64,000 nucleotides of DNA from an uncultured Candidatus Saccharibacteria bacterium (GTDB lineage: Bacteria; Patescibacteriota; Saccharimonadia; Saccharimonadales; JAUPVS01), in contig CAYPFM010000001.1 of NCBI GenBank assembly GCA_964410185.1, positions 208,860 to 272,859 on the forward strand. Direction: 5' to 3'. A program made the translations under genes and the position numbers. Below the pieces are notes generated by a model. It saw only the letters and a program-made list of their open reading frames with translations, was not told where the DNA came from and did not search any database. This document shows, in pieces, positions 12,146 to 59,185 of the stretch. Each line of letters opens with the position of its first letter. The first letter of the stretch is position 1.

Positions 12146-12153
12146 GCGAAATC

Positions 12154-39090: not shown

Positions 39091-39109
39091 CTAACGCTAT
39101 ACTTGCAAT

Positions 39110-41264: not shown

Positions 41265-41284
41265 GGAACCGGTACTGTTAAGCC

Positions 41285-41602: not shown

Positions 41603-41668
41603 CACTACTTCCTTGACATAATTTCCACTTAGCGGGATGATTAAAATATCAACTAAGGAGGGATAACA

Positions 41669-42064
41669 ATGGTTGCACCAAAAAATACACCAACCGGGTG
41701 GGTTGGCTGGATCTACTTTGCCGGCATTCTTTTGCTCGTACGTGCTGTACTGCAAGGATTCTTTGGCGTGGTAGCTCTAACTCACAGTACATTCTATGTG
41801 GTTACTGCCAAGCAGCTCGCTGTCTATAACTTTACCGCGTGGGGCTGGATTCACCTGGCTCTCGCTGTCGTGCTCCTGTTCGCCGGTTTCTCAGTGCTAT
41901 CAGGTCATCTTTTTGGCCGAGTAGTTGCTATGATCGTCGCTGCTCTGTCTTTGGTCGCTAACTTGGTCTTTTTGCCAGCCTACCCAGTCTGGTCAATCGC
42001 CGCTATCGCCATTGACGCCTTGATCTTGTACGCTCTCGTTGTCCACGGTCACGAAGTCGAATAA
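41669..42064 (+). CDS. hypothetical polytopic membrane protein
   Basis: 131 aa with 4 predicted TM helices. Confidence 0.5.
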   Translation: MVAPKNTPTGWVGWIYFAGILLLVRAVLQGFFGVVALTHSTFYVVTAKQLAVYNFTAWGWIHLALAVVLLFAGFSVLSGHLFGRVVAMIVAALSLVANLVFLPAYPVWSIAAIAIDALILYALVVHGHEVE

Positions 42065-42077
42065 GATTCTGGGTACA

Positions 42078-42116
42078 CAAAAAACCGGTCGGTAGAATGT
42101 ACGGCCGGTTTTTTAT
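42078..42116. terminator. bidirectional intrinsic terminator between convergent genes
   Basis: 9-bp stem aaccggtcg / cggccggtt flanked by an A-run and a T-run. Confidence 0.6.
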
Positions 42117-42793
42117 TTGAATTCAGTGACGGGCGGGATGTTGTAGAGCTTGACCATGGCGGGGTCGGTGGCTGTACCGCCGTAGAGAACGACCCAATTG
42201 CCGTCGGCCTGCTTGAGATAGTAAGTCTTGCTTGCGTTCGCTGCGTTGGCGGTCGTCGCACAAGTGGCAGTGACCGAGGCGTAGTTCTTGTCGGTTGAGT
42301 AGAGGACTTTCTTTTTATCGGTGCCTGAAGTTCCCTGCGTATAGACCAGCGCTTTGGCAGTGGTTGGATCAACTTGTGCCTGGCAGTAGGCGGTGGTGGA
42401 TTTAATGACTAGCTCATCAGCAGTTGGCTGCGTGGTATCCTTCGTCAGTTTGTCGTTATCGGCCTTGAGCGCCGCGTTTTGAGTTTGCAAATCAGTTATC
42501 TGGCTCTCGAGTTCACCACGTTGGGCAATCAGTCGGTCGACATGTTGATGCTGCCAGTAAAACACACCATAACCAGCCGCGCCCGCGAGAGCGAGTACGA
42601 CAAAAATCATGAGTAAAGCTTTGAGGAACTTATGGCCACCCTTTTTCGCCTTAGCAGGTGGTGGAGTCGGGGTGACAGGAACGTCAGGCTTAAAAGGGTC
42701 TTCTTGAACAGGAGGAGTCGGCGTGACAAGCGGTGCTTGGGGGCCGGGTCCAGGAGGGTTTGAGACGGGTTTAAAATCCATATCCATTTGCAT
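42113..42793 (-). CDS. hypothetical protein (Pro-rich N-terminus, TM helix, coiled coil)
   Basis: 226-aa ORF. Confidence 0.5.
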   Translation of the reverse strand: MQMDMDFKPVSNPPGPGPQAPLVTPTPPVQEDPFKPDVPVTPTPPPAKAKKGGHKFLKALLMIFVVLALAGAAGYGVFYWQHQHVDRLIAQRGELESQITDLQTQNAALKADNDKLTKDTTQPTADELVIKSTTAYCQAQVDPTTAKALVYTQGTSGTDKKKVLYSTDKNYASVTATCATTANAANASKTYYLKQADGNWVVLYGGTATDPAMVKLYNIPPVTEFK

Positions 42794-42993
42794 CCATTAT
42801 TACCGAAGTTAATAATAAACACAAGCGGAAATGAAATGGTAGCCATAGATAGAATTACTTGGAACTTAATTAAGACTGAACTGATTAGTATGTCCCAAAT
42901 CGTCACAATGTACGATAAACATTATCGGGGGTTAGCCTAAGCGGACGTACTAGAACCCCTGAAAGAGCTATAAGCATTAGCATAACATTTTAT

Positions 42994-43021
42994 TTGATAT
43001 GTCAATATTCTCTAGTACAAT
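42994..43021 (+). promoter_or_regulatory. promoter TTGATA-16-TACAAT
   Basis: Upstream of the ORF at 43045, which has a gaggga RBS. Confidence 0.45.
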
Positions 43022-43044
43022 GGTAAGTAAACCGAGGGACGCAC

Positions 43045-45042
43045 ATGAGAATTAGCCACGTTGAGATAGAAAACTACCGATCAATCGAAAAGATTGAGCT
43101 AAGAGTGCTTGACCCGACCATAGCCTGTTTTATTGGAGGGAATGGTAGTGGAAAATCAAACATCTTAAGAGCTATTGCTGCAATGAAGACTGGTCAAAAG
43201 TTTGATGATGACGATTTTTATGTTGAGGCAGGCGAGGAAGATGAGATTAAAGTATCGCTTACATTTATTCTGGAAAAATCAGACTTAGAGCTTTTAGAGC
43301 CGATTGGGCTAAAGTCACAACACGTAAGCGGGTTTAAGGTTACGAAAGTACAGAAGCTTGGGCAGAAACACACCGTATATGCTGAGTTACTAGGTTATGA
43401 CAATGTATTAGAAAAGCGACTTGAGAGTAAGCTTAATGTCATTACGCGTGCCATATCGGCGCAACTGAAACCTGAAGACGACCAAGAAGCCCATCTTAAG
43501 TTGAGCGCGACGATTCGTAACAGTGAAGAAACTAAAGAAGTAATAGACGCTAGTATTGTCAGTCTGATAACCACCCTTAAGCAATATGTGCCAGATGTCT
43601 CTACGCTGGGCATCGACGAGAAAGAACTTGAAGCTTTGGCAAACTTTAAACAGCCCAATTTTGCATACAAAGACCTGTTTGGTGCTATTGATATAGAGCT
43701 ACTTTCACTCGACGACTATCAAATAGCAAATGAGGCTCCCATTGAAGAGCTCCAAGTTAGAGATAGTCATCCTTTCCTATTTGACCTACTCTCCATATCT
43801 GGGAAGTCTGCTACTGACTTTTTGAATGCTGAGGGCAATAAAAAAATCAATATCTCAGAACAGGCTTCAGAACAACTTACCGATACAATGCAGAAAGTTT
43901 GGGGGTCTCATGGGCTACCGCTCGTCGTTCACAAAGATAAGAAGGACACGACCCTATCATTCTGTAGCAGGACGCCAAACCAGAAGGCGATTCCTTTAGA
44001 GAGTGCGAGTAAGGGTACACAATGGTTTCTTCGATTTTACACGAGACTAATAACTGCAAGGAATCACTCGAAGCGTATTATTTGGCTTTTTGATGAGCCA
44101 GACCTTGGTCTTCATGCAAAGTCCCAACAGGACTTAGTGAAACTCATTGAGGAACAGTCTGGCGACTCCCAAATACTATATTCAACGCATCAACCAATAA
44201 TGATTCAATGGCATCGTCTAGAACGTATTCATGTTGTTGAGAACGTCCCGAAGGTAAAACAGGAAAAGTTTGGAAAGGGTACAAAGGTACATCAACGGTT
44301 CTGGGATGATGGGGATTTTGACTCGCCTCTTAAAGAGGTGTTAAAGCTATTTATTGGTGAAGATATTCTCTGGACAAAGGAACATGTGGTTGTCGAAGGC
44401 CCTTCAGATTACTTCTACTTTGTGGGCTGGGCTAATCGTTTTGCCAACGATAATCCAAATGCAAAAATCTGGAATGATGAGTTCTCTTCTCCAAGCAGAG
44501 CTTTTGTTCCGGCCGGTAGTATCACTAACATCCCTCTCTTCTTATTCTTTCTCACAAAGAGGAATGGCGCAGAAACTGTAAACTGGGCGTCTATAACTGA
44601 CACAGGGAAAGATCACAGTGATATTAAGCAGGTAATAAATAGTACATCTCGCCTAAAAAGGTTTAGCGACCGAGTTATTGAATTGCAGAGGCCTGAAGGG
44701 GAGAAACTTGATAAAGACTTTGACGTTGAAGATCTTTTTGACCGACAAGAGTTCTACGACAAGGCAGCAGAGTACTATGCAGCTACGTATCCAGACTGCA
44801 AATTCCCAAACTATAAGGACTTAGCTAAACAAGAAAAAATAACCAAAACCTTAACTTCACAGCTAAAGAAACTTAACAAAGAGAAGATGCCTAACATATC
44901 GTTTGATAAGCCTGGTGTGGCTCAGTATATATACTCCCAGCTAGTGGTTGAAAACAAACCATTCTCGGAAGTATCTTTAAAGAACTTTAGATCGACGCTT
45001 AATGCAATCAATAGGGCATTTAGTCTTGACCCAACTGATTAG
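43045..45042 (+). CDS. OLD-family nuclease: ABC-type ATPase fused to a TOPRIM-like domain (class 1 OLD or fused PARIS-like)
   Basis: Walker A GGNGSGKS, signature-like SKGTQ, Walker B IIWLFDEPDLGLH and H-loop YSTHQP. This is followed by HVVVEGPSDYFYF (TOPRIM/DUF4435-type Glu). Confidence 0.7.
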   Translation: MRISHVEIENYRSIEKIELRVLDPTIACFIGGNGSGKSNILRAIAAMKTGQKFDDDDFYVEAGEEDEIKVSLTFILEKSDLELLEPIGLKSQHVSGFKVTKVQKLGQKHTVYAELLGYDNVLEKRLESKLNVITRAISAQLKPEDDQEAHLKLSATIRNSEETKEVIDASIVSLITTLKQYVPDVSTLGIDEKELEALANFKQPNFAYKDLFGAIDIELLSLDDYQIANEAPIEELQVRDSHPFLFDLLSISGKSATDFLNAEGNKKINISEQASEQLTDTMQKVWGSHGLPLVVHKDKKDTTLSFCSRTPNQKAIPLESASKGTQWFLRFYTRLITARNHSKRIIWLFDEPDLGLHAKSQQDLVKLIEEQSGDSQILYSTHQPIMIQWHRLERIHVVENVPKVKQEKFGKGTKVHQRFWDDGDFDSPLKEVLKLFIGEDILWTKEHVVVEGPSDYFYFVGWANRFANDNPNAKIWNDEFSSPSRAFVPAGSITNIPLFLFFLTKRNGAETVNWASITDTGKDHSDIKQVINSTSRLKRFSDRVIELQRPEGEKLDKDFDVEDLFDRQEFYDKAAEYYAATYPDCKFPNYKDLAKQEKITKTLTSQLKKLNKEKMPNISFDKPGVAQYIYSQLVVENKPFSEVSLKNFRSTLNAINRAFSLDPTD

Positions 45043-45124
45043 CCTTTAGGATACTAGCTTCTATTTCCGCTAAAAGCTCAAAATATTCAACAAGCACAGC
45101 TAGTTCCTCGTCGCTTAGTTTCAT
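45020..45124 (-). CDS. candidate 34-aa protein translationally coupled to the upstream membrane protein
   Basis: ATGA start/stop overlap at 45121-45124. Translation MKLSDEELAVLVEYFELLAEIEASILKANQLGQD. Confidence 0.35.
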   Translation of the reverse strand: MKLSDEELAVLVEYFELLAEIEASILKANQLGQD

Positions 45125-45549
45125 TGGGTGCTATCGGGAGCTGTAAGTACTGGTGGCTCTGGTATTGTTGGTAGCTGTTGTCGGGTGCCTTCAGATTCAC
45201 TTATCGTTCTGTCCAGATCAGCTTGTGAGACAGTGAGCCAAGCGCCCATCGTAAGACCGTAGGCTAAAAGGATAAAGAGTATTGGCTTAAGAATGCGCCA
45301 CCACATTTTGGGCTTTGGTTTGCCAGAGCGTTTGCGAATGTAATAGTTCGCGGCGAGGATGGTAATAACGAGAAGCCCAACACGAGTAAAAGGGAAAATG
45401 GGGTAAAGCCACTGATGGGTAGCGTTTTCAACTTGAGCTACAATCGTTTCAAAGCCAAAGTTCACTAACAGGAAAATGCCGAAAGCCGCAGAATAAACCT
45501 TAACTCTACTCACTTTTTGTTTGGGTTTTGGGGAGCTGTCGTCCGTCAT
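45121..45549 (-). CDS. hypothetical membrane protein (3-4 TM helices)
   Basis: 142-aa ORF with a ggagga RBS upstream. Confidence 0.55.
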   Translation of the reverse strand: MTDDSSPKPKQKVSRVKVYSAAFGIFLLVNFGFETIVAQVENATHQWLYPIFPFTRVGLLVITILAANYYIRKRSGKPKPKMWWRILKPILFILLAYGLTMGAWLTVSQADLDRTISESEGTRQQLPTIPEPPVLTAPDSTQ

Positions 45550-45587
45550 GGCTGATCCTCCATTATGTTATTAATGGGGAGGCCTGA

Positions 45588-45616
45588 ATAAAAAAGGACA
45601 ACCCCTCTAGGTTGTC
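45588..45616 (-). terminator. intrinsic terminator inside the leader of the 45549 gene
   Basis: gacaacc / ggttgtc 7-bp perfect stem (45597-45616). The T-run falls on the minus strand (plus-strand ataaaaaa at 45588-45595). Confidence 0.5.
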
Positions 45617-45757
45617 TACACCAGCACAAGGTTGTACCCTGTGTTTTTCGAGAGGTTGCCCATTGTTGGGTACAACCAATCAAAGATTGGCTTTCACAAG
45701 CTTGTACTGATGTAGACCCCATAATAATAACAGAGAAGTTACTTCAAAATCATCACG

Positions 45758-46261
45758 GTGTATGATGTTCCTATGGCTAAACAGGTGAAGGATAAAAAAT
45801 GGCGTATAATTCGCCCACCGTTAGGAACTGGGTTCTATCTTCCAACAAGGGAAGATTTACTTAAGATAAAGCGGGGCGATGTCGTGAAACTCATCTTTCA
45901 GGCAGGCGAAGACGCACCCGAAAGGATGTGGGTTCAAGTAGAAAAATGTGGAGACTCTGAGCACTGGACTGGACGGCTTGATAATGACCCTGCGCAAGAA
46001 TACTTGGCCTCAGTACTAAAATACAAAGATGTAATTCGCTTTCACCCGCTTGATGTTATTAATATTGATTCCGAAAATAAAGTTCCAGAAGAGCCGAGCA
46101 TTGAACAGATTATAGATAAAAAACTAGGTGACGTTATCAACAGCGTGAACAGGCCGTGGTATAAAAACCCTAACATCATGGTACCGGCTGCCGCCACAAT
46201 CATTGTTGGCCTGCTAAGTGCAGTCGTAACTCTAATCGCTGCTCTCATTAATAAACACTGA
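45758..46261 (+). CDS. hypothetical protein with C-terminal TM anchor (possibly DUF2314-like)
   Basis: 167 aa. ERMWVQVEKCGDSEHWTGRLDNDP pattern. C-terminal helix AATIIVGLLSAVVTLIAALI. Confidence 0.45.
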   Translation: MYDVPMAKQVKDKKWRIIRPPLGTGFYLPTREDLLKIKRGDVVKLIFQAGEDAPERMWVQVEKCGDSEHWTGRLDNDPAQEYLASVLKYKDVIRFHPLDVINIDSENKVPEEPSIEQIIDKKLGDVINSVNRPWYKNPNIMVPAAATIIVGLLSAVVTLIAALINKH

Positions 46262-46531
46262 ACAGAGGTAGATTCTAGGTACACTTGCTTTGTCTCTACG
46301 CGCGAGCGTCTTCACCCCCCCTGCATAGTAGGGGGGTAGGCGTCGTACATTGTCTGATAATGTGCGATGACTATTGAAGCTAACGCATGTTGCAAAAGAA
46401 CTTTTGCGACTTGCTCCGCGCGAATAGCCGGTGTAATTATGTACCCCCACCTTCTCTTTTGTTTTTCCTTCTTCTCTACTTGGTGCACACACAAAATTTT
46501 TTTCTAGGGCAAAGTGTTTAATAATTAGGGC

Positions 46532-46996
46532 ATGACTGCGAATAATAACGGCAAGGTAGTAACCCAAGCACAGCTAGTGCGCATGACTTACATGAAGTTG
46601 TTAGAGCTGGAAGTTAAGTTTGACTTACTTGACACAAAACTTGAAAGCCTCCAGCAAGACGTAAGTAGGAATGTGTTCGTACGTAGTGAGTTAATTAAAA
46701 CTAGATTTGACCACAGGACAAACGAGCTTTATATCACGGAGCACTTTAAGATACCTTTTGAGGGTAACGAAGCCGCTCTGCTAGCCGTCATGTTTAAGAA
46801 GTCTACTGGCCAGCCTAAGAGAACAACCAAGTTCTATCCAGCAGAGCTTGCCGGTACGTTCCAAGACGCCACAGATGGTCTTAAAACACCTAAGGCAATA
46901 CACGGAACGATTGTCAGGATTGATTCAAGCATTAAGCACAGAACAATGGGCTTAGAGGTCTTTAAGATTACAACTAAAGTTTTCTATTTTTTGTAG
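46532..46996 (+). CDS. hypothetical protein
   Basis: 154-aa ORF with an N-terminal coiled-coil-like segment. Confidence 0.5.
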   Translation: MTANNNGKVVTQAQLVRMTYMKLLELEVKFDLLDTKLESLQQDVSRNVFVRSELIKTRFDHRTNELYITEHFKIPFEGNEAALLAVMFKKSTGQPKRTTKFYPAELAGTFQDATDGLKTPKAIHGTIVRIDSSIKHRTMGLEVFKITTKVFYFL

Positions 46997-47053
46997 CACC
47001 CCCTAGTAAGTTCGCGTGAGTTCACTTGCTATCGGTTTTGTTTAAATGGGCAA

Positions 47054-47233
47054 ATGCTATTTAGAGCAAACCAAGCCATCCCGATTTCAGAAGCTCGTGA
47101 GCTACTAGGCGACGAGAGCGACAGTATGACCGACGAAGAAGTGTTAAGGCTGATTGAAGACTTTGACATCATTGCACAGTACACAATTAAATTAGTTCAA
47201 AAGTTTAAACAAAATAAAGCCACAACAGGTTAA
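47054..47233 (+). CDS. candidate 59-aa protein upstream of recombinase B (below track cutoff)
   Basis: MLFRANQAIPISEARELLGDESDSMTDEEVLRLIEDFDIIAQYTIKLVQKFKQNKATTG. Ends 24 nt before the recombinase ATG. Confidence 0.4.
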   Translation: MLFRANQAIPISEARELLGDESDSMTDEEVLRLIEDFDIIAQYTIKLVQKFKQNKATTG

Positions 47234-47257
47234 TATAATGTTAAAATAGTTCTAAGT

Positions 47258-48808
47258 ATGAATAGTGTTGTATATGTCAGGGTATCAACAGACGAGCAAG
47301 TGCTGGGCACGAGCTTAGATATGCAACAAAAACAGTGTTTAGAGTTTGCAAAGGCGCATGGCTGGAACGTACCGAAGGAAAATGTCTTTCGCGATGAGGG
47401 CGAATCAGCAAAGGCTACCAATCGGCCGAAGCTTCTCGCCATGCTTGAGCATTGTCGCAAGAACAAACGCAAAATTGAAAAGTGTATTGTTTGGAAGTTA
47501 GATAGGTTTGCTCGCAACTCTGACGATCATGTAATGATACGTGCCATACTGCGCAAGAATGGCGTATCACTCGTGTCCGTTACCGAGCCTATTGATGACA
47601 GCCCGACCGGCAAACTTATGGAAACGGTGCTTTCAGGCTTCGCGCAGTTTGATAATGAAGTCAGAACACACCGAACAACGGAAGGAATGAAAAGACGCCT
47701 TGAGCAGGGCGGGTGGCCGCATGACGCACCTATTGGTTATATAAAGGCGCGCACTCGTGAGGGCGTAACAACCATCGCTCCGCACTCAGAAATGGCACCA
47801 AAGCTCACACTCTTTTTAGAAACATTTTCAACCGGCCAATACACCGTCAGACAAGCAACTGACCTCGCCTATGAATTAGGTATACGAAACGGTAAAGGTG
47901 AAAAGCGAACATGGCAAACAATTGAAAACACTATCAAGAACCCGATTTACGCTGGGTACATTCAGTCTAAGTACACAGACGGCAATCGCTACGTTGGCTT
48001 GCACGAGGCGTTGATTAGCGAAGCAACCTTTAACAAGAACCAGAGTATCCTTGTTGGTAAACAAAAAGTGTTTACCCGCAGTGACGAGGGTGACTATCCA
48101 TTACGGCGAGACTTTTTACGCTGCATACACTGCGGTAAATTCGTAACTGCGAGTGCGCCAAAAGGGGCAAGCGGTATTAAGTACCCACGGTATAGCTGTA
48201 TTAATTGCAAGACATCGGTAATTGGTAAAAAGGTCAGCAAATCAAGCGAAGAGATTCATAAAGAGTTCCGTGAGGTATTGTCACGAATCCGCTACAAGGA
48301 AAACAGGCTCAAAGTTTTCAAACGTATTGTGTTGCAGCGTTGGTGCGATGAGTATGATGACGCGCTCAAGGCAGCCTATCAAGTTAATAAAGAGCTTGAA
48401 ACCTTGCAGACCGAACGCGCCAAGGTTAATCGCAAGTTCGCCCGCGATGAGTATACGTTTACCGAGAAGCAGGAATTAATCAGAGACATTGACGCCGAAA
48501 TCGTAGACTACATGAAGAAAAAAGTTGAAGCCGACGAGTATGCCAATCAAAAGGAGCAAATCATTGATAATGCCATGCTGTTCATGAACGAGCCATCAGA
48601 GTTCTGGAACAGAGCACCATTACAGATACAAAAGGCAGTACAGCATACACTTTTCCCGCATGGTTTGGCCTATGACTTTGAAAATGGCTTTGGAACTATT
48701 GAGCTGAACGAGTCGTATCTGTTGCTACAAAAAATAGCGCCCGAAGACGCTAATGGTTCTATTGTGGTAGCGGCGACAAGATTTGAACTTGTGACCCCAG
48801 GCTTATGA
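47258..48808 (+). CDS. large serine recombinase/integrase; last ~11 codons are antisense tRNA sequence
   Basis: VYVRVSTDEQ...DRFARN catalytic domain, recombinase domain, zinc ribbon (CIHCGK...YSCINC) and coiled coil. The ORF crosses the att core at 48765. Confidence 0.85.
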   Translation: MNSVVYVRVSTDEQVLGTSLDMQQKQCLEFAKAHGWNVPKENVFRDEGESAKATNRPKLLAMLEHCRKNKRKIEKCIVWKLDRFARNSDDHVMIRAILRKNGVSLVSVTEPIDDSPTGKLMETVLSGFAQFDNEVRTHRTTEGMKRRLEQGGWPHDAPIGYIKARTREGVTTIAPHSEMAPKLTLFLETFSTGQYTVRQATDLAYELGIRNGKGEKRTWQTIENTIKNPIYAGYIQSKYTDGNRYVGLHEALISEATFNKNQSILVGKQKVFTRSDEGDYPLRRDFLRCIHCGKFVTASAPKGASGIKYPRYSCINCKTSVIGKKVSKSSEEIHKEFREVLSRIRYKENRLKVFKRIVLQRWCDEYDDALKAAYQVNKELETLQTERAKVNRKFARDEYTFTEKQELIRDIDAEIVDYMKKKVEADEYANQKEQIIDNAMLFMNEPSEFWNRAPLQIQKAVQHTLFPHGLAYDFENGFGTIELNESYLLLQKIAPEDANGSIVVAATRFELVTPGL

Positions 48809-48841
48809 GTCCTGTGCTCTAACCAACTGAGCTACGCCGCC
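48765..48841 (-). tRNA. elongator tRNA-Met (CAU)
   Basis: GGCGGCGTAGCTCAGTTGGTTAGAGCACAGGACTCATAAGCCTGGGGTCACAAGTTCAAATCTTGTCGCCGCTACCA, 77 nt with CCA encoded. The D arm and variable region are near-identical to E. coli elongator tRNA-Met as I remember it. Confidence 0.8.
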
Positions 48842-48994
48842 ACGGGGTTCCGGGTTGAGGAACAGATGTGAATATACCATGTTTTGCCTCTGTTGGCTAG
48901 CCAGTACGCGAGATTTGTTCGCCTTAGCGCGTATTACTTGCTATAATGTAATTCCAGTATGATTGCTGGAAAAAACATCATAATTTTGTCAACA

Positions 48995-49017
48995 AACGCC
49001 TCGTCTGAGGCGTTTTT
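48995..49017 (+). terminator. intrinsic terminator within the leader of ORF 49043
   Basis: aacgcctc-gtct-gaggcgtt hairpin followed by TTTTT. Confidence 0.5.
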
Positions 49018-50493: not shown

Positions 50494-50582
50494 GCCTGCG
50501 ATTATTCATGCCTGCAGTTCTTAAAGAAGTAAAACTGATTATGCCTAGTGACTAGGATGCTAACTGCTGGTATAACTTGTGC

Positions 50583-51092
50583 ATGGCTACAATACAAACC
50601 CACGAAGAAAAACTGAAGCATCACCGACTGGTGGTACAGAGCCTGCGGGCAAAGGCTGATGCCAAAAGGACCTTTACCGACCGAGTAGCCGATAGCCTGA
50701 CCGCCAAATTTGGTACCGTTTTGTTCCTGGTCTTAAATGCCATTTGGTTCTTTGTTTGGATCGTGCTCAACACCAACATTATTCCTGGCGTAAAGCCGTT
50801 CGATCCATTCCCGTTTGGCTTGCTCACCATGATTGTTTCGCTGGAGGCTATATTCCTAGCCATTATTGTTTTGATTTCACAAAACCGCGCCGCCCGAATC
50901 GCAGAACTGCGTGAAGAGGTTGACCTCCAAGTTAACTCAATCGCCGAAACTGAGATTACGAAGATTATCGAAATGCTTGGTGTCTTGATGCAGAAGAACG
51001 GTGTAAAAGTCGATGACCCCGACATGGAAGAGATGATGCGCCCAATCCGCAGCCAAGACATCGAGAAAATCCTCGAAAAACAGCTGCAATAA
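50583..51092 (+). CDS. DUF1003-like membrane protein
   Basis: FGTVLFLVLNAIWFFVWIVLN...PFDPFPFGLLTMIVSLEAIFLAIIVLISQNR pattern. ATG at 50583 within track ORF 50577..51092. Confidence 0.55.
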   Translation: MATIQTHEEKLKHHRLVVQSLRAKADAKRTFTDRVADSLTAKFGTVLFLVLNAIWFFVWIVLNTNIIPGVKPFDPFPFGLLTMIVSLEAIFLAIIVLISQNRAARIAELREEVDLQVNSIAETEITKIIEMLGVLMQKNGVKVDDPDMEEMMRPIRSQDIEKILEKQLQ

Positions 51093-51169: not shown

Positions 51170-51745
51170 ATGAAGAATACGCTTATTGTTGTTCTGGTGA
51201 TTGCAGTACTGGGTCTTGGTGGCTGGGTAGTCTATGACAGAACCAGGCCGAACACAGCGACTACAACGACCTCAACAACGGCAACTGCCGGCCAGCCAAA
51301 GTCTGCTAATACCTTAGATCTGAGCGACAAAGGACTGACCAAGGTTGGTCCAGAAATCTATAACCAGACCAACACTACTGCGTTGATTCTGTCTAACAAC
51401 AACATTCAAACGCTGCCATCAGAGATGGGCAAGATGACCAAGCTTGAGGTCTTTACTATCGACCATAACCGGCTTGACGGCTCACTGATTGGCGAGATAC
51501 GCAAAATGCCACTCAAAAGCCTCGATGTTAGCTATAACAACATGACGGGTATGCCAGCTGAAATTGGGCAGCTGAACAAGCTGGAGACACTTAATTACAG
51601 CTACAACAAAATAACAGGGATACCAAACGAGATTGCGAATCTAAAGAACAATCTCAAGGAGCTGAATCTTACCGGCAACCCAGTCAGTCAATCGACATTG
51701 GCCAAGCTGAAGTCGGAGCTACCCAGCACGAACATAATTTTTTAG
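51170..51745 (+). CDS. leucine-rich repeat protein, N-terminally anchored
   Basis: TM helix, Thr-rich linker, then about 6 LRRs (LxLSxNxIxxLPxEIGxLxxL). Confidence 0.7.
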   Translation: MKNTLIVVLVIAVLGLGGWVVYDRTRPNTATTTTSTTATAGQPKSANTLDLSDKGLTKVGPEIYNQTNTTALILSNNNIQTLPSEMGKMTKLEVFTIDHNRLDGSLIGEIRKMPLKSLDVSYNNMTGMPAEIGQLNKLETLNYSYNKITGIPNEIANLKNNLKELNLTGNPVSQSTLAKLKSELPSTNIIF

Positions 51746-51753: not shown

Positions 51754-52005
51754 ATGAAACGAACGTTTACGAATGAAGAAGCGAAAGCGATTGGCGACAG
51801 CCTAGGGATAGACTGGCAACAGGTTAATCTTGAGCAGTTCCGCATGGGCCTAACTGTGGAGTTCGAGCACGGCTCGCATGATAGTGAAACGAATGTTACC
51901 AACGACGATACCACAATGACAGGGAAGATTGCTTGGGCCCATCTCAAAGAAATCCCGGACTACTATACGCGTCTAGCTAAAATGGAGGCCGAGGCCGAAA
52001 GCTAA
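51754..52005 (+). CDS. hypothetical small protein
   Basis: 83-aa ORF. Confidence 0.5.
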   Translation: MKRTFTNEEAKAIGDSLGIDWQQVNLEQFRMGLTVEFEHGSHDSETNVTNDDTTMTGKIAWAHLKEIPDYYTRLAKMEAEAES

Positions 52006-52085: not shown

Positions 52086-52631
52086 ATGGCCAAAAAAACA
52101 GATCGAAAAACAATTGATATGGTGTTTGTATTGCTCGGCGCCGCGATGACCTTAACACTGGTTGTGGTGGGTGGTATTTCTATGTACGCCTACAACTTTG
52201 CTACCACGAGCGTCCGCACCGAGCTCGTAGCCCAAAAGATATACTTCCCTCCAAAGGGTAGCCCAGCCCTTGATCCAAAGGAATTTCCTGACCTACAACA
52301 ATACGCTGGCCAGCAAGTTGACGATGGTATCAAGGCCAAGGCGTATGCCAATGGCTTTATTGGTCGTCACCTCGAAAAAGTAGCTGGTGGCAAAACCTAC
52401 TCCGAAGTTAGTACCGAGGCTATGAAAGACCCAACCAACCCTAAGTTGGCTGCTCAAAAGGCCACACTATTTCAGGGTGAAACCTTGCGCGGTATTCTAC
52501 TCGGTGACGGCTACGCCTACTGGACCTTTGGCCTAATCGCCTTCTACGCTGCTATCGCTGCCTTTATCGGTGCCGCTGTTATGGCTGTCCTAGTACTGCT
52601 CGGCTTCCGCCACATGTCTAAGCAAAAGTAG
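52086..52631 (+). CDS. hypothetical membrane protein (TM helix at each end)
   Basis: 181-aa ORF. Confidence 0.5.
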   Translation: MAKKTDRKTIDMVFVLLGAAMTLTLVVVGGISMYAYNFATTSVRTELVAQKIYFPPKGSPALDPKEFPDLQQYAGQQVDDGIKAKAYANGFIGRHLEKVAGGKTYSEVSTEAMKDPTNPKLAAQKATLFQGETLRGILLGDGYAYWTFGLIAFYAAIAAFIGAAVMAVLVLLGFRHMSKQK

Positions 52632-52681: not shown

Positions 52682-53701
52682 ATGAAGTATAGTCTTGCCG
52701 ATACCCACCAACTCACTCCCAGCACTATTCTGCTGACGTTTGAGCCCAAAGGTGGCAAAGCCATTGGCTTTATGCCCGGTCAGTATGCTGCGTTACGCTT
52801 TAAGCACAATGGTCGACCAACGCCCGCCCGCTGCTTCTCGATTGTTAATCGGCCAAACCAAGAGGGCACACTACAATTCGCCGTTAAGGTAGAAGGGAAG
52901 TTCACCTCGGCGTTGAACGAACTAGCAGCTGGCGCGACCGTTGATATCGACGGGCCATTCGGTGAATTCGTCCATGACCGGCAGTACGACCAAGACTCGG
53001 TTATGTTGGCCGGTGGCATTGGCATTACGCCAATTATGAGTATTTTAGCCGATGCCGTTCCGCAGGGTGGCGACAATACTTTTACGCTACTTTACAGTAT
53101 TCGTGATCAACAAGATGCAGCTTACGCCGATGAGTTATTGGCGCTCGAAAAAACCAACCCTAACTTTCGGGTAGTTTTCTTTGTTACTGGTGGTGGGGCG
53201 CCGCGGTTTGACGCCAGTCACGCCATGTTCCGGCGCATAACCCCAGGTATTATCGCCAAGGCGGCAGATGACGACTTCGAAAATACCAGTTTCTTTATTT
53301 GTGGGCCGGCTAGTTTTATCGACTCTATGCGGGATATTTTGCGCCAAAAAGGCGTGCCACCCCTCCGCATTAACACCGAGGCCTTCACGCAAGCTAAAGC
53401 GGTAGTCGAGAAACCAAGCCTTGTCTCATTGTGGCAGCGTTTTTGGGTGTACGGTCTGGCGGCCGCCTCTTTTGTGCTTGTTATGGGCGCCGTCGCAACG
53501 ACTGACGTTTTGGCGAATTCCTCGGACGAAAAACCAACCACGGTGATTGTGCCAACGTCCGGCACTACTTCGACCTCATCCGAAAGTGAAGCGGGTGAAG
53601 ATACTGTTCCAGCCCAAACGACGACCCCTACAACTACTCCGACGGTAACAACGCCGAGAGCCACTCAAACCTACCAACGTCCAACCTCATCGGTGTCGTA
53701 A
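52682..53701 (+). CDS. FNR-like FAD/NAD(P)H oxidoreductase with C-terminal TM helix and Thr/Ser-rich tail
   Basis: RCFS (RxYS-type FAD motif), MLAGGIGITP and FFICGP. Followed by the LWQRFWVYGLAAASFVLVMGAV helix and a T/S/P-rich tail. Confidence 0.75.
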   Translation: MKYSLADTHQLTPSTILLTFEPKGGKAIGFMPGQYAALRFKHNGRPTPARCFSIVNRPNQEGTLQFAVKVEGKFTSALNELAAGATVDIDGPFGEFVHDRQYDQDSVMLAGGIGITPIMSILADAVPQGGDNTFTLLYSIRDQQDAAYADELLALEKTNPNFRVVFFVTGGGAPRFDASHAMFRRITPGIIAKAADDDFENTSFFICGPASFIDSMRDILRQKGVPPLRINTEAFTQAKAVVEKPSLVSLWQRFWVYGLAAASFVLVMGAVATTDVLANSSDEKPTTVIVPTSGTTSTSSESEAGEDTVPAQTTTPTTTPTVTTPRATQTYQRPTSSVS

Positions 53702-54618
53702 TGAAGCACCTGAGCCAGCAAACTAAAACTGCCTTGGGGTCCCAAGTGCTTTTGACCATAGTGAGCGATGAACCAGGTGAAGAATTGCTGGAGCAATTGT
53801 GGCGTAAGATTGACAGCTTTGAAGCTCGGTTTAGTCGGTTTAAAACCGACAGCGAGTTAACGCAATTTAATCACGCCGCTGGCCACGAAACGCCAATTTC
53901 GTCGGAGTTTCGGGCTATCTTACTGGCCGCCAAAGAGATGGCTGAAATAACCGATGGCTTGTTTAACCCCTTCATCCTGCCGGCTTTGCAAAAGGCTGGC
54001 TACAAGCAGTCTTGGCTGCGTGATAGCACCGTAGCAGCCGATTTTTCAGAACGGCGAGTCGCTGAGCCATCGGAGCTGATTATTAAGGCTACCACTGCCG
54101 CCATCCCGCCGGATGCCGCTATCGACCTAGGTGGGTGTGGCAAGGGCTACCTGCTTGATTTGCTAGCTAAGGAGCTGACAACAGCTGGCGTGACTGACTT
54201 CTGGCTGTCTTTGGGCGGCGACATCGTCGTCAAAGGCTGCGACGAGAACGGACAGCCGTGGCAGATTGACATTGCCGATGCACTGGAACCGGACCTGACG
54301 GTCGCGGTGGTGCAGGCACCAACGACGGGCCTGCTAGCCATCGCGACATCGGGAATCACCAAACGGCAGGGTATGCATCATGGTCAACCGTGGCACCACA
54401 TAATTAATCCAACCGATGGGCAGCCAGCGGAGACGGATATCTTGACCGCTACAATCTGCGCGCCAACCGGACTGGCTGCCGATGTCTATGCGTCTTGCAT
54501 AGTGACACTTGGTACGGCCCACTATCAGGCGTTTGCCAACGAACATAAACTATCAGATACACTCGTCCAAACGGTGGCTAAAAAAATGCTAAGAGGTGAT
54601 AGGATGAGCTTACGATGA
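53701..54618 (+). CDS. apbE: FAD:protein FMN transferase
   Basis: 305 aa with an ApbE-like pattern (FNPFILPA..., DLGGCGKGY, ATSGITKRQ). A 1-nt overlap with the upstream stop. Confidence 0.75.
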   Translation: MKHLSQQTKTALGSQVLLTIVSDEPGEELLEQLWRKIDSFEARFSRFKTDSELTQFNHAAGHETPISSEFRAILLAAKEMAEITDGLFNPFILPALQKAGYKQSWLRDSTVAADFSERRVAEPSELIIKATTAAIPPDAAIDLGGCGKGYLLDLLAKELTTAGVTDFWLSLGGDIVVKGCDENGQPWQIDIADALEPDLTVAVVQAPTTGLLAIATSGITKRQGMHHGQPWHHIINPTDGQPAETDILTATICAPTGLAADVYASCIVTLGTAHYQAFANEHKLSDTLVQTVAKKMLRGDRMSLR

Positions 54619-55229
54619 GTACTATGACGCTTCGATTCGCAGTTGAGCCGCATGTACGGGTTCTGCATACCTGGCCCTGGTATCTCACTCGGTCCTCGGG
54701 CCTTGTTGCCGCCATCTCTTTGGTGTTGTTGATGGTAACAGGGATTACGATGTTCATTGGCTACGAATTCAAGTTTATGCAGCCGCTGAAGGCGTGGGCC
54801 AACCACCGTACCTTGGGCATCGTTTTTAGTGTGAGCGTCGCGGTACACGTGCTGTCCCTGCTTTTTGATAAGTACATTTCCTTCAATATCCCACAGGTAT
54901 TGGTGCCTTTTGTTTCTGACTACAAGCGAACGCAGCTGCTAGGGCTTGCAGTCGGCTCCTTAGGGGTGGCCCTGGGAGTTATCTCGTTGTATCTGGTGAT
55001 AGCGATAGTCTACACCTCGCTGACTAAAACAATGACGAAACGTCCAGCCCTCTGGAAGTGGACTCACTATCTGAGCTACCTCGTCATTTTATTCATTTTC
55101 TTCCATAGCATCATGATTGGTACCGATCTTAAAAATGGTTTGTGGCGCTGGAGCTGGATCATTGCCAACGTCGTAATTTTAGTACTAGTTGGTTTACGTT
55201 TGCGCCGCGTTGGATCCCTTAACTCCTAA
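54615..55229 (+). CDS. ferric-reductase-domain-like bis-heme membrane protein
   Basis: Two TM helices carry His pairs spaced H-x13-H (HRTLGIVFSVSVAVH) and H-x12-H (HYLSYLVILFIFFH). ATGA overlap with apbE. Confidence 0.6.
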   Translation: MSTMTLRFAVEPHVRVLHTWPWYLTRSSGLVAAISLVLLMVTGITMFIGYEFKFMQPLKAWANHRTLGIVFSVSVAVHVLSLLFDKYISFNIPQVLVPFVSDYKRTQLLGLAVGSLGVALGVISLYLVIAIVYTSLTKTMTKRPALWKWTHYLSYLVILFIFFHSIMIGTDLKNGLWRWSWIIANVVILVLVGLRLRRVGSLNS

Positions 55230-55250: not shown

Positions 55251-55802
55251 ATGACGGAATTATGGCAACTTTATAGCGAAGACGGCCAGCCACTAGTGGG
55301 CAAAGGCGCCACCAAAGACGAGACCTTCAAAAAAGGCCTCCTACACGGTGCGGCTCACGTTTGGGTTTGGCGACGGACACCACGCGGCGTCGAGGTTCTG
55401 GCGCAAAAACGAGACTCCAAAAAACGCACCTGGCCCAACACCTACGACGCCTCGTCGGCAGGGCACGTTAGTCTTAACGAGAGCCCTTTACAAACGGCAG
55501 TCCGAGAAACCGAAGAGGAAATTGGCCTAGTCGTTGATACAGAAGATTTGCAGCTTGTGGCGCGCCTGAAGCCCCGAAAAATTCAGCCTAACAATGTCGA
55601 TACCGAAAACGAGGTTCGCTGGATATATTTTTACGAGTTGCAGCACGATTTTGAATTTCGTTTGGAGGCCAACAAAGTGGCTGCTCTTGACTGGAAAAAT
55701 TTAGAGGAGCTAAAGCGCGAACTGTTTGAGTTCCCCGACCGTTATCTCCCACAGGGTGACGAGTATTATCAGACCTTAATTAGTGCGTTAGAAAAACTCT
55801 AG
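55251..55802 (+). CDS. NUDIX hydrolase
   Basis: Nudix box GHVSLNESPLQTAVRETEEEIGL. Confidence 0.8.
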   Translation: MTELWQLYSEDGQPLVGKGATKDETFKKGLLHGAAHVWVWRRTPRGVEVLAQKRDSKKRTWPNTYDASSAGHVSLNESPLQTAVRETEEEIGLVVDTEDLQLVARLKPRKIQPNNVDTENEVRWIYFYELQHDFEFRLEANKVAALDWKNLEELKRELFEFPDRYLPQGDEYYQTLISALEKL

Positions 55803-56286: not shown

Positions 56287-56952
56287 ATGGTATTTCGTAA
56301 AACAACTTCAACTGAGGCGATTACAGATTATGTTAGCGATATTCTTCGCACTAAACTGGGCGCTGGCGAAAGGGTTTTATGGCTGGTAGCCGGTGGTTCG
56401 GCCATTAGTGTGGCGGTGGCGGTGGCGCATAATTTACAGGGCTTGGACCTGAGCAACCTAACGGTTACCTTAACTGATGAACGCTACGGCCCGGTTGGGC
56501 ATCCAGATTCTAATTGGGCGCAATTGGAGCAGGCTGGCTTTAGTCTGCCAGGCGCACAGCTCGTGCCAGTTTTACATGGTCACTCCATCGAAGATTCCAC
56601 CACCGAGTTTGCTCGGCACTTACAAGAGTATTGCCAAGGCGCGACCTATTGCTTGGGACTTTTTGGTATTGGTCCCGATGGCCATACGGCTGGCACCTTA
56701 CCTCACAGCCCTGCTGTTGAGTCGACGGAGTGGGCGGCCAGCTACCAAGGACCCGACCATATGCGGGTGACTATGACGGCCTCAGCCATTGCTGCGCTGA
56801 GCGAGGCAGTGGTATATGCTATGGGGGAGGCTAAGGCCGAACCGCTAAAGCGTCTAAACACAGGGGTTCCAATCGCTGAACAGCCTGCCCAGGCTCTCAA
56901 AAAAGTGCCCATACTAACCATTTTTAATGACCAAATAGGAGACACCGTATGA
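56287..56952 (+). CDS. pgl: 6-phosphogluconolactonase
   Basis: GLFGIGPDGHTAG motif. Adjacent to gnd and zwf. Confidence 0.75.
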   Translation: MVFRKTTSTEAITDYVSDILRTKLGAGERVLWLVAGGSAISVAVAVAHNLQGLDLSNLTVTLTDERYGPVGHPDSNWAQLEQAGFSLPGAQLVPVLHGHSIEDSTTEFARHLQEYCQGATYCLGLFGIGPDGHTAGTLPHSPAVESTEWAASYQGPDHMRVTMTASAIAALSEAVVYAMGEAKAEPLKRLNTGVPIAEQPAQALKKVPILTIFNDQIGDTV

Positions 56953-57854
56953 AAATCGCAATTGCTGGACTTGGCCGGATGGGAATGCAGATTTCCCGCA
57001 AACTAAGTGAAGACGGACATGAGGTAATCGCGCACAACCGTAGTCAGGGCCCAATTGATGAAGCCGTCGGCTATGGTGCCAAGGCCGCGCCAACCGCCAA
57101 TGACGTTGTTGAAGCCTTTAAGGGTGAGCAGCTCATACTTTGGATTATGCTGCCAGCCAACATTATGGACGACACCATTGCTGAATGGCTCAAGCTTGTT
57201 CCCAAGGGCAGCATCTTAATTGATGGTGGTAACTCCGATTTTCGCCTGACCCAAAAACGATCTGAGCTAGTTGCAAGCCAAGGTTCAACCTTGCTTGATG
57301 TCGGCACCAGCGGTGGCGTGTGGGGCTACCAGAACGGCTTCTCGATGATGGTTGGTGGCGACAAAGCTGCCGTAGCAGTGATCGAGCCCGTCTTGAAGAC
57401 ATTGGCCGCGCCAGAAGGTGCCTACTTCCACTTTGGTCCCAGCGGCTCCGGCCACTACGTTAAGATGGTTCACAACGCGGTTGAATATGGCATGATGGAG
57501 AGTCTGGCCGAAGGCTACCGAATGCTCAAGGAAGGCGCCTACAAAGACCAGATAGATCTCGCTGCTGCCGGCAACGTTTGGCAGCACCATAGCGTGGTTA
57601 CGTCATGGCTAAACGAGCTGTGTCAGTCGGCTCTAGAAGAAAATCCCAACCTCGATGGCATCGAAGGCTTTGTGGCTGAGTCAGGAGAAGCGCGCTGGAC
57701 GCTCGAAGCCGCCAAAGACCTCGGTATCCCGCTACCGGCTATTCAAACAGCTTTTGACGTGCGTTTGGCATCACAAAAGGGTGAAGTTAATTTTGCTACC
57801 AAACTACTATCGGCAATGCGCAATAAATTCGGGGGCCACGAGCTAAACAAATGA
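56949..57854 (+). CDS. gnd: 6-phosphogluconate dehydrogenase (decarboxylating), short form
   Basis: IAGLGRMGMQI Rossmann N-terminus, GHYVKMVHNAVEYG motif, 301 aa. Confidence 0.8.
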   Translation: MKIAIAGLGRMGMQISRKLSEDGHEVIAHNRSQGPIDEAVGYGAKAAPTANDVVEAFKGEQLILWIMLPANIMDDTIAEWLKLVPKGSILIDGGNSDFRLTQKRSELVASQGSTLLDVGTSGGVWGYQNGFSMMVGGDKAAVAVIEPVLKTLAAPEGAYFHFGPSGSGHYVKMVHNAVEYGMMESLAEGYRMLKEGAYKDQIDLAAAGNVWQHHSVVTSWLNELCQSALEENPNLDGIEGFVAESGEARWTLEAAKDLGIPLPAIQTAFDVRLASQKGEVNFATKLLSAMRNKFGGHELNK

Positions 57855-59185
57855 GCGACATTACGCAGCCGACCATCCTGGTTATCATTGGTATCTCTGG
57901 CGACTTAGCACAGCGTAAATTACTACCGGCACTTCGTGAAATTGCCGAAGCCGGCGCCCTGCCAGACGCTTTCCGTATTATTGGTATCTCCCGTCGAGCC
58001 TTACAGCTGTCTGATATTGCACCGGCGGATGACACTTTCTGGGAGCAGCATCTAGAGCTACATCAGATGGATCTGAGCGACATACAGGCCTACCATGACT
58101 TCGCCACACAACTTCAGGGCATTGAACGTTCCTTGGGTGGTTCAGCCCAGCGCTTGTTCTATCTTTCGGTGCCGCCGGAGGCCACCCAGTCAGTTGTGGA
58201 GATGTTGGGCAACTCCGGGCTAGCCGAAGTACCAGATACTAAACTATTGCTAGAAAAACCATTTGGGACCGATTTAGCGTCGGCACAGCAGTTGGTCGAG
58301 CACTTACAGCAACACTTCAAAGAGGAGCAGGTCTACCGGATTGACCACTATTTGGCCAAGGAGATGGCTCAAAACCTGATTGTCTTCCGTTCTGCCAACC
58401 CCGTCTTTTCCGAAACCTGGAACAATAAATTCATCTCTAGCATTGAGATTATCGCCAGCGAAAAGATTGGCATCGAGGGCCGCAAAACTTTTTACGAGCA
58501 AACTGGTGCTTTGCGAGACGTTGTCCAAAGCCATCTTCTGCAGCTGGCTGCGCTGACGCTTATGGAATTACCAAAGCTGAACGATATGCAAAGTACACCA
58601 CGACTGCGCTGCCAGGCGCTATCAGCAATACGACCGGTTGAGGATATCGAGACCAATGTGGTGCGAGGCCAGTACCAAAGCTACAAAGACGAAGTCGGCA
58701 ATCCGGATAGCGCCGTTGAGACGTTTGTTTCGTTGCGCCTGCAATCGAATGACGAGCGCTGGAAGGATGTGCCAATTATACTCACCACTGGGAAAGCGCT
58801 CGCCGAGCAACGCACCGAGATTCGTGTCAGCTATCGCGGTGAAGGTAACACCGACGCAAACATTTTGATCCTGCGCGTTCAGCCTGACGAAGGTGTTCAG
58901 GTCTGTCTGTGGGTCAAGAAGCCAGGCCTTGATAACGCTTTGCAACAGATTCCACTCTCCTTTGAGTATAAGCATCACTTCAACGACAAACTGCCCGATG
59001 CCTACGAACGGGTTTTTGTAGACGCCATGCGCTCTGACCACAGCCTGTTTACAACCAGCCAAGAAGTTTTAGCGAGCTGGCAGATTTTGGCGCCCGTCCA
59101 AGAAGCCTGGAATCAGACCGATGCCGACCTACGCATCTACCCAGCTGACAGCTCACCCCAGGACATTATTAAAACCAAGCAATGA
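57851..59185 (+). CDS. zwf: glucose-6-phosphate dehydrogenase
   Basis: GISGDLAQRKLLPAL N-terminus and YRIDHYLAKE motif. Confidence 0.85.
   Translation: MSDITQPTILVIIGISGDLAQRKLLPALREIAEAGALPDAFRIIGISRRALQLSDIAPADDTFWEQHLELHQMDLSDIQAYHDFATQLQGIERSLGGSAQRLFYLSVPPEATQSVVEMLGNSGLAEVPDTKLLLEKPFGTDLASAQQLVEHLQQHFKEEQVYRIDHYLAKEMAQNLIVFRSANPVFSETWNNKFISSIEIIASEKIGIEGRKTFYEQTGALRDVVQSHLLQLAALTLMELPKLNDMQSTPRLRCQALSAIRPVEDIETNVVRGQYQSYKDEVGNPDSAVETFVSLRLQSNDERWKDVPIILTTGKALAEQRTEIRVSYRGEGNTDANILILRVQPDEGVQVCLWVKKPGLDNALQQIPLSFEYKHHFNDKLPDAYERVFVDAMRSDHSLFTTSQEVLASWQILAPVQEAWNQTDADLRIYPADSSPQDIIKTKQ

Follow-up and report, generated by a model that had tools for sequence, protein, structure and literature searches.

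A predicted NOX/FRE-type electron-transfer operon with a separately encoded dehydrogenase, an ApbE-family transferase and a candidate flavinylated tail in Candidatus Saccharibacteria

Introduction

The usual view of Saccharibacteria and their relatives is that they are symbionts living by fermentation, with hardly any redox machinery in the membrane. A three-gene operon at positions 52682-55229 of a 64,000-nucleotide stretch of DNA from an uncultured Candidatus Saccharibacteria bacterium (GenBank assembly GCA_964410185.1, contig CAYPFM010000001.1, positions 208,860 to 272,859; the whole stretch is called the window below) encodes an FNR-type dehydrogenase, an ApbE-family flavin mononucleotide (FMN) transferase and a ferric-reductase-domain protein. 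The locus raises two questions: do the dehydrogenase and the haem protein make one transmembrane (TM) enzyme, and what does the ApbE encoded between them modify? A preliminary description, made from the letters of the window, had proposed a split NOX/FRE-like chain with a flavinylated tail on the dehydrogenase. In the present analysis the separate dehydrogenase and haem polypeptides are supported. The proposed chain withstood the three refuting conditions set in that description, since gene 3 matches the Ferric_reduct profile and the NOX/STEAP folds, its His residues are invariant and the three genes are kept together in other loci. The flavinylation site proposed in that description was wrong; a different candidate site was found at the extreme C-terminus of the dehydrogenase.

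Operon layout and conservation

The three genes are arranged as follows.

52682-53701, + strand: gene 1 (339 amino acids, aa), FNR-type NAD(P)H dehydrogenase with one TM helix and a tail
53701-54618, + strand: gene 2 (305 aa), ApbE-family flavin adenine dinucleotide (FAD):protein FMN transferase
54615-55229, + strand: gene 3 (204 aa), 5-TM ferric-reductase-domain protein, predicted bis-haem

The open reading frame (ORF) coordinates and the junctions TAATG (genes 1 and 2, 1-nt overlap) and ATGA (genes 2 and 3, 4-nt overlap) agree with the overlaps first described. A pattern scan with one genome per GTDB species gave 77 loci. The bins are mostly Saccharimonadales, with a few labelled Paceibacteria, Parcubacteria, Nomurabacteria, Berkelbacteria or Dormiibacterota, and the homologues are labelled Candidatus Saccharibacteria or Saccharimonadales. 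Of 76 genome loci, 64 have the order gene 1-gene 2-gene 3 with tiny gaps or overlaps, and among the other 12 there are 11 partial operons at or near a contig end. About ten metagenome contigs carry the same order. Because this gene order recurs in so many loci, the adjacency is not due to chance, and the early assumption that the three genes form a conserved unit held up. The operon is widespread in Saccharibacteria and present in a few other bins labelled Candidate Phyla Radiation (CPR). Only one complete locus, L059 (5764-7576), has gene 3 directly after gene 1 without ApbE. Its gene 1 ends in an intact ...YYQQPVTSVS and ABC-transporter genes are found downstream.

Gene 3 and its histidine pairs

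Gene 3 matches the Pfam Ferric_reduct profile (PF01794) at 31.5 bits (cut-off 28). Two of its helices carry paired histidines:

54804..54848, + strand: helix with invariant H64 (54804-54806, predicted inner haem) and H78 (54846-54848, predicted outer haem)
55065..55106, + strand: helix with invariant H151 (55065-55067, predicted inner haem) and H164 (55104-55106, predicted outer haem)

The spacings H-x13-H and H-x12-H are those reported in the preliminary description. All four histidines are invariant in an alignment of 24 homologues with identity down to 26%, and they are kept in the natural fusion proteins described below. The other residues invariant in the 24 homologues are R26, D85, P98, G121, S135, W147, Y155, G169, D171 and R195. 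The gene 3 family profile matches the STEAP4 TM domain at 1.7e-6 and SpNOX weakly. In the STEAP4 alignment, H78 and H164 fall on haem ligands while H64 and H151 form an extra pair; the H64 position is not His in STEAP and YedZ. The AlphaFold2 (AF2) model has five long helices with a predicted local distance difference test score (pLDDT) of 88.5. Its top Foldseek matches in PDB are SpNOX, the NOX5 TM domain and NOX2 (probability 1.0, TM-score 0.43-0.58), and STEAP1/STEAP and DUOX are also among the best. Binding of two b-haems is predicted from these features.

The preliminary description had likened the His spacing to NOX/FRE domains and had also allowed for a match to MsrQ-type profiles. YedZ/MsrQ and STEAP proteins are defined by an Arg that replaces the first haem His, O2-reducing NOX enzymes carry His119 and Thr178 (NOX2 numbering), and few short bacterial forms retain all four His, these adjoining the long FRE/NOX forms (Zhang et al., 2013, PMC3591440). 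In gene 3 the first His (H64) is invariant, and Leu is found at both NOX positions, L82 at H78+4 (His119 position) and L120 before the invariant G121 (Thr178 position), as placed by motif register and not by structural superposition. Since the first His is kept and both NOX positions are Leu, gene 3 is by its signature residues a four-His FRE-like short form, neither MsrQ nor a signature NOX. It is highly improbable that gene 3 is an MsrQ/YedZ-type subunit feeding a periplasmic methionine-sulfoxide reductase. Several homologues are named YedZ or "methionine sulfoxide reductase heme-binding subunit" by JGI, but besides the invariant H64, no MsrP/YedY-like molybdoenzyme gene is conserved near the operon, and the electron donor is a dedicated FNR module that is fused to the ferric-reductase domain (FRD) in relatives.

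Gene 1 and its natural fusions to the haem domain

Gene 1 matches the Pfam domains FAD_binding_6 (51.5 bits), NAD_binding_1 (46.8 bits) and NAD_binding_6, the ferric-reductase NAD domain (31.1 bits). Its features upstream of the C-terminal peptide are listed here.

52691..53332, + strand: FAD-binding barrel (aa 4-97) and NAD(P)H-binding Rossmann domain (aa 108-217), Pfam envelopes
52829-52840, + strand: RCFS (aa 50-53)
53012-53032, + strand: GGIGITP (aa 111-117)
53297-53308, + strand: ICGP (aa 206-209)
53441..53503, + strand: TM helix (aa 254-274), N-in/C-out, predicted TM1 of a 6-TM ferric-reductase domain
53504..53668, + strand: juxtamembrane D-[VL]-x-x (D275 conserved in at least 90%) and hypervariable Thr/Ser/Ala/Pro-rich linker
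53552-53578, + strand: PTSGTTSTS (aa 291-299), within the hypervariable linker

PF00970 and PF00175 occur together with R-x-[YF]-S, G-x-x-[ST], GGxGxxP and CGP, and the motif residues are invariant or nearly so among 60-66 gene 1 homologues. The succession of FNR motifs, TM helix and Thr/Ser/Pro-rich tail noticed at the outset is confirmed by the Pfam domains and motif positions. PDB sequence matches are FNR-family reductases, among them the SpNOX dehydrogenase domain at 5e-13. In an AF2 model from a 60-sequence alignment, residues 1-235 have pLDDT above 95, residues 247-280 form a helix and the tail is disordered (pLDDT 42-56). The helix is assigned N-in/C-out because its N-terminal flank has more K+R (2.4 versus 1.4 downstream) and fewer D+E (0.35 versus 1.04) among the homologues. 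The tail that follows is 47-197 aa long (median 92) and rich in T (21%), S (16%), A (13%) and P (11%).

Rare natural single chains show how genes 1 and 3 belong together. A profile search of 1.84 billion representatives gave 275 relatives at E <= 1e-30. Four of the top matches (P0298, P0299, P0300 and P0302) consist of FAD_binding_6, NAD_binding_1, one TM helix, a loop of 10-30 aa and Ferric_reduct. The gene 1-type helix leads directly into the W-P-W-Y-x-x-R-x-x-G that starts the first helix of gene 3, and P0299 retains a D-L-x-x-x-P juxtamembrane motif. None of the four fusion clusters has the tail or the C-terminal motif of gene 1. These fusions show that genes 1 and 3 form one enzyme, that the gene 1 helix is TM1 of a six-helix domain, and that gene 3 is the equivalent of NOX TM2-TM6 with its N-terminus outside and its C-terminus inside. 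In the operon this NOX-type enzyme is interrupted in extracellular loop 1, and its dehydrogenase precedes the membrane domain, which is not the order of NOX. Taken together, the single chains and the split operons document permutation and cutting of a NOX-type enzyme within an extracellular loop. When the four fusions served as seeds for a metagenome scan, they brought up the roughly ten split operons counted above, all with ApbE, and no further fusions with an N-terminal dehydrogenase.

Five apparent ApbE-FRD fusions in high-GC actinobacterial data (P0049, P0330, P0375, P0382 and P0406) look like gene-call or frameshift artefacts and were not used. In P0299 (L078, 2566-4050), which comes from a contig without ApbE, a perfect SGAT core (...HAQSGATAL..., residues ~292-300) is found in the extracellular TM1-TM2 loop. 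It may be a chance occurrence in a loop rich in S, T and A, or a site for an unlinked ApbE.

Gene 2 and the candidate flavin acceptor

Gene 2 was first called ApbE-like, and its Pfam ApbE match (PF02424, 171 bits) and PDB ApbE matches at 7e-23 agree with this. S217, H233 and D261 align with Ser241, His257 and Asp285 of Vibrio cholerae ApbE and are invariant in 71 operon copies; a working transferase is expected because these catalytic residues are invariant. A different role is that of an Ftp-like FAD pyrophosphatase or flavin-trafficking protein, which would not modify a protein but would provide the dehydrogenase with FMN or manage its FAD. FAD hydrolysis is a known activity of ApbE/Ftp proteins (e.g., Treponema pallidum Ftp), the ApbE here is cytoplasmic by its sequence, and the operon has no canonical acceptor motif, all of which would fit such a role. 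The invariant residues of the transferase chemistry speak against it, though they do not strictly discriminate between the two activities, and under it there is no explanation for the invariant C-terminal motif of gene 1 or for the lack of ApbE beside the fusions without a tail. We consider it rather improbable.

If gene 2 is a transferase, its substrate has to be found. The preliminary description had pointed to PTSGTTSTS in the gene 1 tail. This peptide lies in linker columns that are hypervariable and unconserved, and it was rejected; the conserved element of the tail is its last ~10 residues:

53669..53698, + strand: TYQRPTSSVS-COOH, gene 1 C-terminus; candidate FMN site Ser339, with Thr336 at -3
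gene 1 C-terminus, + strand: C-terminal peptide ...ATQTYQRPTSSVS, candidate FMN-bearing end

Several classes of C-terminus were found among 179 unique gene 1 homologues. The ending Y-x-x-P-x-[ST]-x-x-S occurs in 60/179; within this class the last residue is S and the -3 residue S or T in 60/60, and the -1 residue is V in 51/60. Another 69/179 end in C-T-T-[TS]-[QPA]-S-G-V-x-T-C-x, 15/179 in C-x-T-T-x-S-G-x-C-x (typically CQTTPSGRCI), 15/179 in ...TTTPSKIP or ...RTTVS....P, and 10/179 in ...[RK][TS]x[VATR]S. The core common to the classes is T-[TS/R]-x-S with an invariant Ser. Among the proteins of the fetched loci the motif is confined to gene 1, and it is the sole family-specific invariant Ser/Thr element in the operon proteins.

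In two loci (L061, 4376-5848, and L070, 741-2150) the gene 1 tail ends instead in a Peptidase_S74 "chaperone of endosialidase" domain (26.9 bits in L061), which in phage tail fibres is a trimerisation module that cleaves itself. The S-D-K-R-L-K of Peptidase_S74 is immediately preceded by ...VTTAS in L070, so that cleavage would put T-T-x-S at or beside the new C-terminus.

ApbE co-varies with the gene 1 tail, and no other co-varying feature was found: the fusions that lack the tail and motif also lack ApbE, while complete split operons, with the exception of L059, have it. ApbE was absent in any frame of the fusion contigs L078-L082 (tblastn best E = 4), which are short (2.4-9.3 kb). Short unstructured acceptors have precedents. 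ApbE accepts 7-aa tags, best placed at a terminus, can use Ser as the acceptor and still works when Ala at -1 is changed to Val (PMC12052999); in FMN_red proteins its target is a C-terminal extension without structure (PMC11334425).

It is also conceivable, although unlikely, that the haem/dehydrogenase chain works as described and ApbE flavinylates a canonical substrate encoded elsewhere, such as an FMN_bind protein; the gene 1 motif would then serve docking to gene 3 or the cell wall, or another modification. A six-frame scan of the window for the canonical [ST]GA[TS] gave a single match, antisense to a real gene, and none in any real ORF; if the canonical motif is needed, it has to be sought outside the window. 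The full acceptor motif D-x-x-[ST]-G-A-[ST] does not occur in the window; the best candidate is P-T-S-S-V-S, with S/T at -3 and 0 and V at -1 and without Gly at -2. No PF04205 (FMN_bind) match was found among operon or flanking proteins. Known MsrQ-like clusters do use FMN_bind proteins (PMC8238504), as does the actinobacterial locus L076 described below. On the other side, the FMN_bind protein found on one operon-bearing contig (L007) has its own cluster with its own ApbE, ApbE lies exactly between the two halves in all complete operons but one and is missing from the tail-less fusion contigs, and no other gene is conserved beside the window-type operon.

The acceptor could also be cytoplasmic, with FMN placed between the dehydrogenase and the inner haem, either on the gene 3 B-loop T-G-x-[ST]-[FY], which adjoins the inner haem, or on the phosphate-binding G-x-x-T of the FNR domain. 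This would suit an ApbE without signal peptide, and ApbE specificity controlled by localisation is known (PMC12052999). The cytosolic B-loop has T-G-x-[ST] in 86/121 gene 3 homologues, ten of them with the perfect core TGATF. The loop in the window, however, reads I-G-Y-E-F, 22/121 copies linked to ApbE have no S/T at either candidate position, and the fusions without ApbE retain T-G-x-T; the B-loop was rejected as a general site. The conserved Ser/Thr residues of the FNR domain all lie in what we take to be generic FNR-family motif positions and were likewise set aside. A cytoplasmic site is, in our judgement, quite improbable.

Proposed mechanism

The operon would encode a self-contained, two-polypeptide transmembrane NAD(P)H:acceptor oxidoreductase of NOX/FRE type. 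Gene 1 would contribute the cytoplasmic FAD/NAD(P)H dehydrogenase and TM1, and gene 3 would contribute TM2-6 with two stacked b-haems. Electrons would pass from NAD(P)H to FAD, to the inner haem (H64/H151), to the outer haem (H78/H164) and to the outer membrane face. This core chain of NAD(P)H, FAD and two haems is very probable from the domains and ligands, with FAD and haem occupancy predicted on the same grounds. To our knowledge, CPR bacteria are generally thought to lack haem synthesis, which counts against it.

The share of the extracellular loop that belongs to gene 1 may have become a disordered Thr/Ser/Pro-rich tether of 47-197 aa with an invariant end motif. ApbE, translationally coupled to gene 1, may link FMN through a phosphoester to the invariant terminal Ser, and the leashed flavin would take electrons from the outer haem and pass them to an external acceptor, which may be Fe(III), O2 or a partner surface. 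We regard covalent FMN on the C-terminal Ser of gene 1 as an evenly balanced proposition.

Several observations weigh against such a flavinylated tail. Gly-Ala, the core of D-x-x-[ST]-G-A-[ST], is missing from T-[TS]-x-S, and AF2 yields neither a structure for the tail nor docking of it on the FNR domain. L059 retains the C-terminal motif though no ApbE adjoins. The correlation between fusion and absence of ApbE comes from four protein clusters, on the short contigs noted above (2.4-9.3 kb). A further difficulty concerns export. The preliminary description had assumed an extracytoplasmic ApbE, but no signal peptide or TM helix was found in any operon ApbE copy or in the 120 closest homologues, as judged by hydrophobicity and ORF boundaries and not by a trained signal-peptide predictor; upstream extension of the gene 2 ORF is impossible, and no copy has an N-terminal hydrophobic stretch. 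The gene 1 tail is nevertheless predicted to lie outside. A cytoplasmic ApbE of Klebsiella serves a cytoplasmic target only (PMC12052999), which also counts against the flavinylated tail. For the tail to carry FMN, flavinylation would need to happen before export, or ApbE would need a way to the outside without such a signal. Flavinylation before export of an unfolded tail is possible, and the objection is softened by L007 and L076, in which an ApbE without signal peptide is paired with an anchored FMN_bind protein.

A bolder scheme, somewhat less likely than not, is one in which the signal-less ApbE would load FMN in the cytoplasm on the last Ser of gene 1 and the tail would then be threaded outward, giving a domain-free flavin on a leash of ~50-200 residues. 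If this is true, the tail is a minimal "flavin tag" that occurs in nature and whose acceptor, T-[TS]-x-S, is non-canonical, and fermentative CPR symbionts without a respiratory chain could dump NAD(P)H electrons on external acceptors or the host surface.

The second operon type and neighbouring genes

Two paralogous operon types were found, and some genomes have both. In the window type, gene 3 encodes ~205-220 aa. In the second type, gene 3 has a signal-peptide-like N-terminus (e.g., ...ATVFA|) and a fourth gene is present, found in 49 loci (L001-L055) just 3' of gene 3 (e.g., L029, 7564-8187). The fourth-gene product is anchored at its N-terminus and has an Ig-like domain in which Cys is conserved (N-x-C-P-x-E-P-L-x-V-Y ... 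W-x-R-I-H-D). Like the gene 1 tail of the same type, the tail of this product carries P-[IV]-Y motifs; it ends in GGGDN or DD, and the product's sole Pfam match is Big_14, below threshold. The window contains neither a second operon copy nor the fourth gene. Beyond the fourth gene of the paralogous type, no conserved neighbour gene was found near the operon in the loci compared. A promoter and terminator scan gave sites no more numerous than in shuffled sequences. An exact-sequence contig look-up with gene 3 of the window gave no match, and a cluster look-up returned only the generic name "ferredoxin-NADP reductase".

The genes that flank the operon in the window are:

50577-51092: DUF1003 membrane protein, upstream
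51170-51745: anchored leucine-rich-repeat protein, upstream
51754-52005: DUF5661 protein, upstream
52086-52631: 181-aa protein with TM helices at both ends and no Pfam match, upstream; near-operon homologues in L029 and L065 only
56287-56952: 6-phosphogluconolactonase
56949-57854: short 6-phosphogluconate dehydrogenase
57851-59185: glucose-6-phosphate dehydrogenase

A NUDIX hydrolase gene (55251-55802; Pfam NUDIX 54 bits, weak resemblance to isopentenyl diphosphate isomerase) follows gene 3 on the same strand after a gap of 22 nt and may be co-transcribed with the operon. It is not a conserved neighbour, and a weak nearby homologue was found only in L031. The last three genes listed are an NADPH-producing oxidative pentose-phosphate trio with overlapping genes (56287-59185), ~1 kb downstream of gene 3. 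It is plausible that they supply reductant locally; their adjacency to the operon is not conserved in other loci.

Further upstream, at ~36000-49000 of the window, the GC content falls from ~0.50 to 0.41-0.46. This stretch carries an AAA_15/AbiEii-like ATPase (43045-45042), a tRNA (40663-40735) and a serine recombinase (47258-48808), which at its 3' end overlaps a tRNA encoded on the opposite strand (48768-48841). The stretch resembles a mobile or defence island that has become integrated. A partial cobalamin riboswitch match (10474-10537; 34.7 bits, gathering threshold 31.5, model positions 47-167) is found upstream of the ORF at 10613-12145.

Comparison with known systems

In the literature library searched, no paper linking Saccharibacteria with ApbE was found. 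The closest described relatives are the MsrQ-like clusters, found mainly in Actinobacteria (Meheust et al., 2021, PMC8238504; Huang et al., 2024, PMC11334425). They share with the operon a PF01794 di-haem protein, apbE and an FNR-type NAD-binding module, and the proposed flow likewise runs from NAD(P)H to an extracytosolic covalent flavin. Their operational definition, a PF01794 gene clustered with apbE, describes the operon as well. The differences lie in the acceptor and in the dehydrogenase. MsrQ-like clusters have an FMN_bind (PF04205) protein, and the operon has instead a putative acceptor of ~10 C-terminal residues on a disordered tether, without G-A core. MsrQ-like clusters fuse the dehydrogenase after TM6, whereas in the operon it is a separate polypeptide N-terminal to TM1. 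The operon also lacks the signal peptide or lipobox on ApbE or on an FMN-binding protein by which the MsrQ-like survey was filtered. That survey dropped signal-less ApbE genes and found CPR "strikingly underrepresented" (Meheust et al., 2021, PMC8238504), and the near-absence of CPR from the main survey of flavin-based extracytosolic electron transfer is partly due to this discarding. The operon would give Saccharibacteria a complete, self-contained route to oxidise NAD(P)H across the membrane.

The actinobacterial locus L076 (Acidimicrobiia) encodes a four-His FRD, then an FMN_bind carrier protein and then a signal-less ApbE. In the carrier, a strongly positive N-terminus is followed by a TM helix, and a Pro/Thr linker leads on to the FMN_bind domain (DTVSGATYTS). 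The helix, linker and motif of gene 1 may mirror this carrier, with the folded domain reduced to a peptide.

In the NQR/RNF-like two-subunit systems of Actinobacteria and CPR (Meheust et al., 2021, PMC8238504), apbE accompanies an anchored flavin carrier and a membrane module to which an NAD-binding domain is fused. The operon-bearing Saccharibacteria contig L007 has such a cluster (10392-13132), with an anchored FMN_bind protein (ITGATFTS; the charges flanking its anchor are ambiguous), a signal-less ApbE of 247 aa and an NqrB/RnfD-like domain fused to NAD_binding_1. Unlike the operon, it uses an NqrB/RnfD-like module, not a haem FRD, and a canonical FMN_bind carrier.

In E. coli MsrQ-Fre, a two-component "NOX-like" system (Juillan-Binard et al., 2017, cited in PMC8238504), the FRD haem protein and the flavin reductase are likewise separate polypeptides. 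Fre is soluble and unlinked, and MsrQ is of YedZ type with Arg at the first His. The reductase of the operon is membrane-anchored and co-operonic and would give TM1, and its FRD keeps four His.

For the candidate acceptor, the nearest likenesses are the C-terminal extension of FMN_red (Huang et al., 2024, PMC11334425) and the engineered 7-residue "Flavin-tag" (PMC12052999), in which a short unstructured terminal Ser/Thr suffices. Both carry the canonical [ST]-G-A-[ST], and the FMN_red flavin folds back into a flavin-binding domain, which the operon tail does not have. If the gene 1 tail is an ApbE substrate, the known range of ApbE extends to a non-canonical, domain-free terminal peptide. This would raise the question of flavinylation before export and would offer a natural template for protein flavin-tagging.

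The best structural matches of the operon are NOX/FRE enzymes (SpNOX 8qq7/8qt6, csNOX5 5o0t, NOX2 and yeast FRE), with the same TM fold, four-His two-haem geometry and FNR-type module. NOX enzymes are single chains in the order FRD, FAD, NAD(P)H, whereas the operon uses two genes and its fused relatives have the order FAD-NAD-TM1-FRD. Compared with NOX, the operon is split in extracellular loop A, lacks the O2 signature and has added ApbE and the tail. It is concluded that the operon would function like a NOX/FRE enzyme and that, operationally, it belongs to the MsrQ-like flavinylation clusters as a variant.

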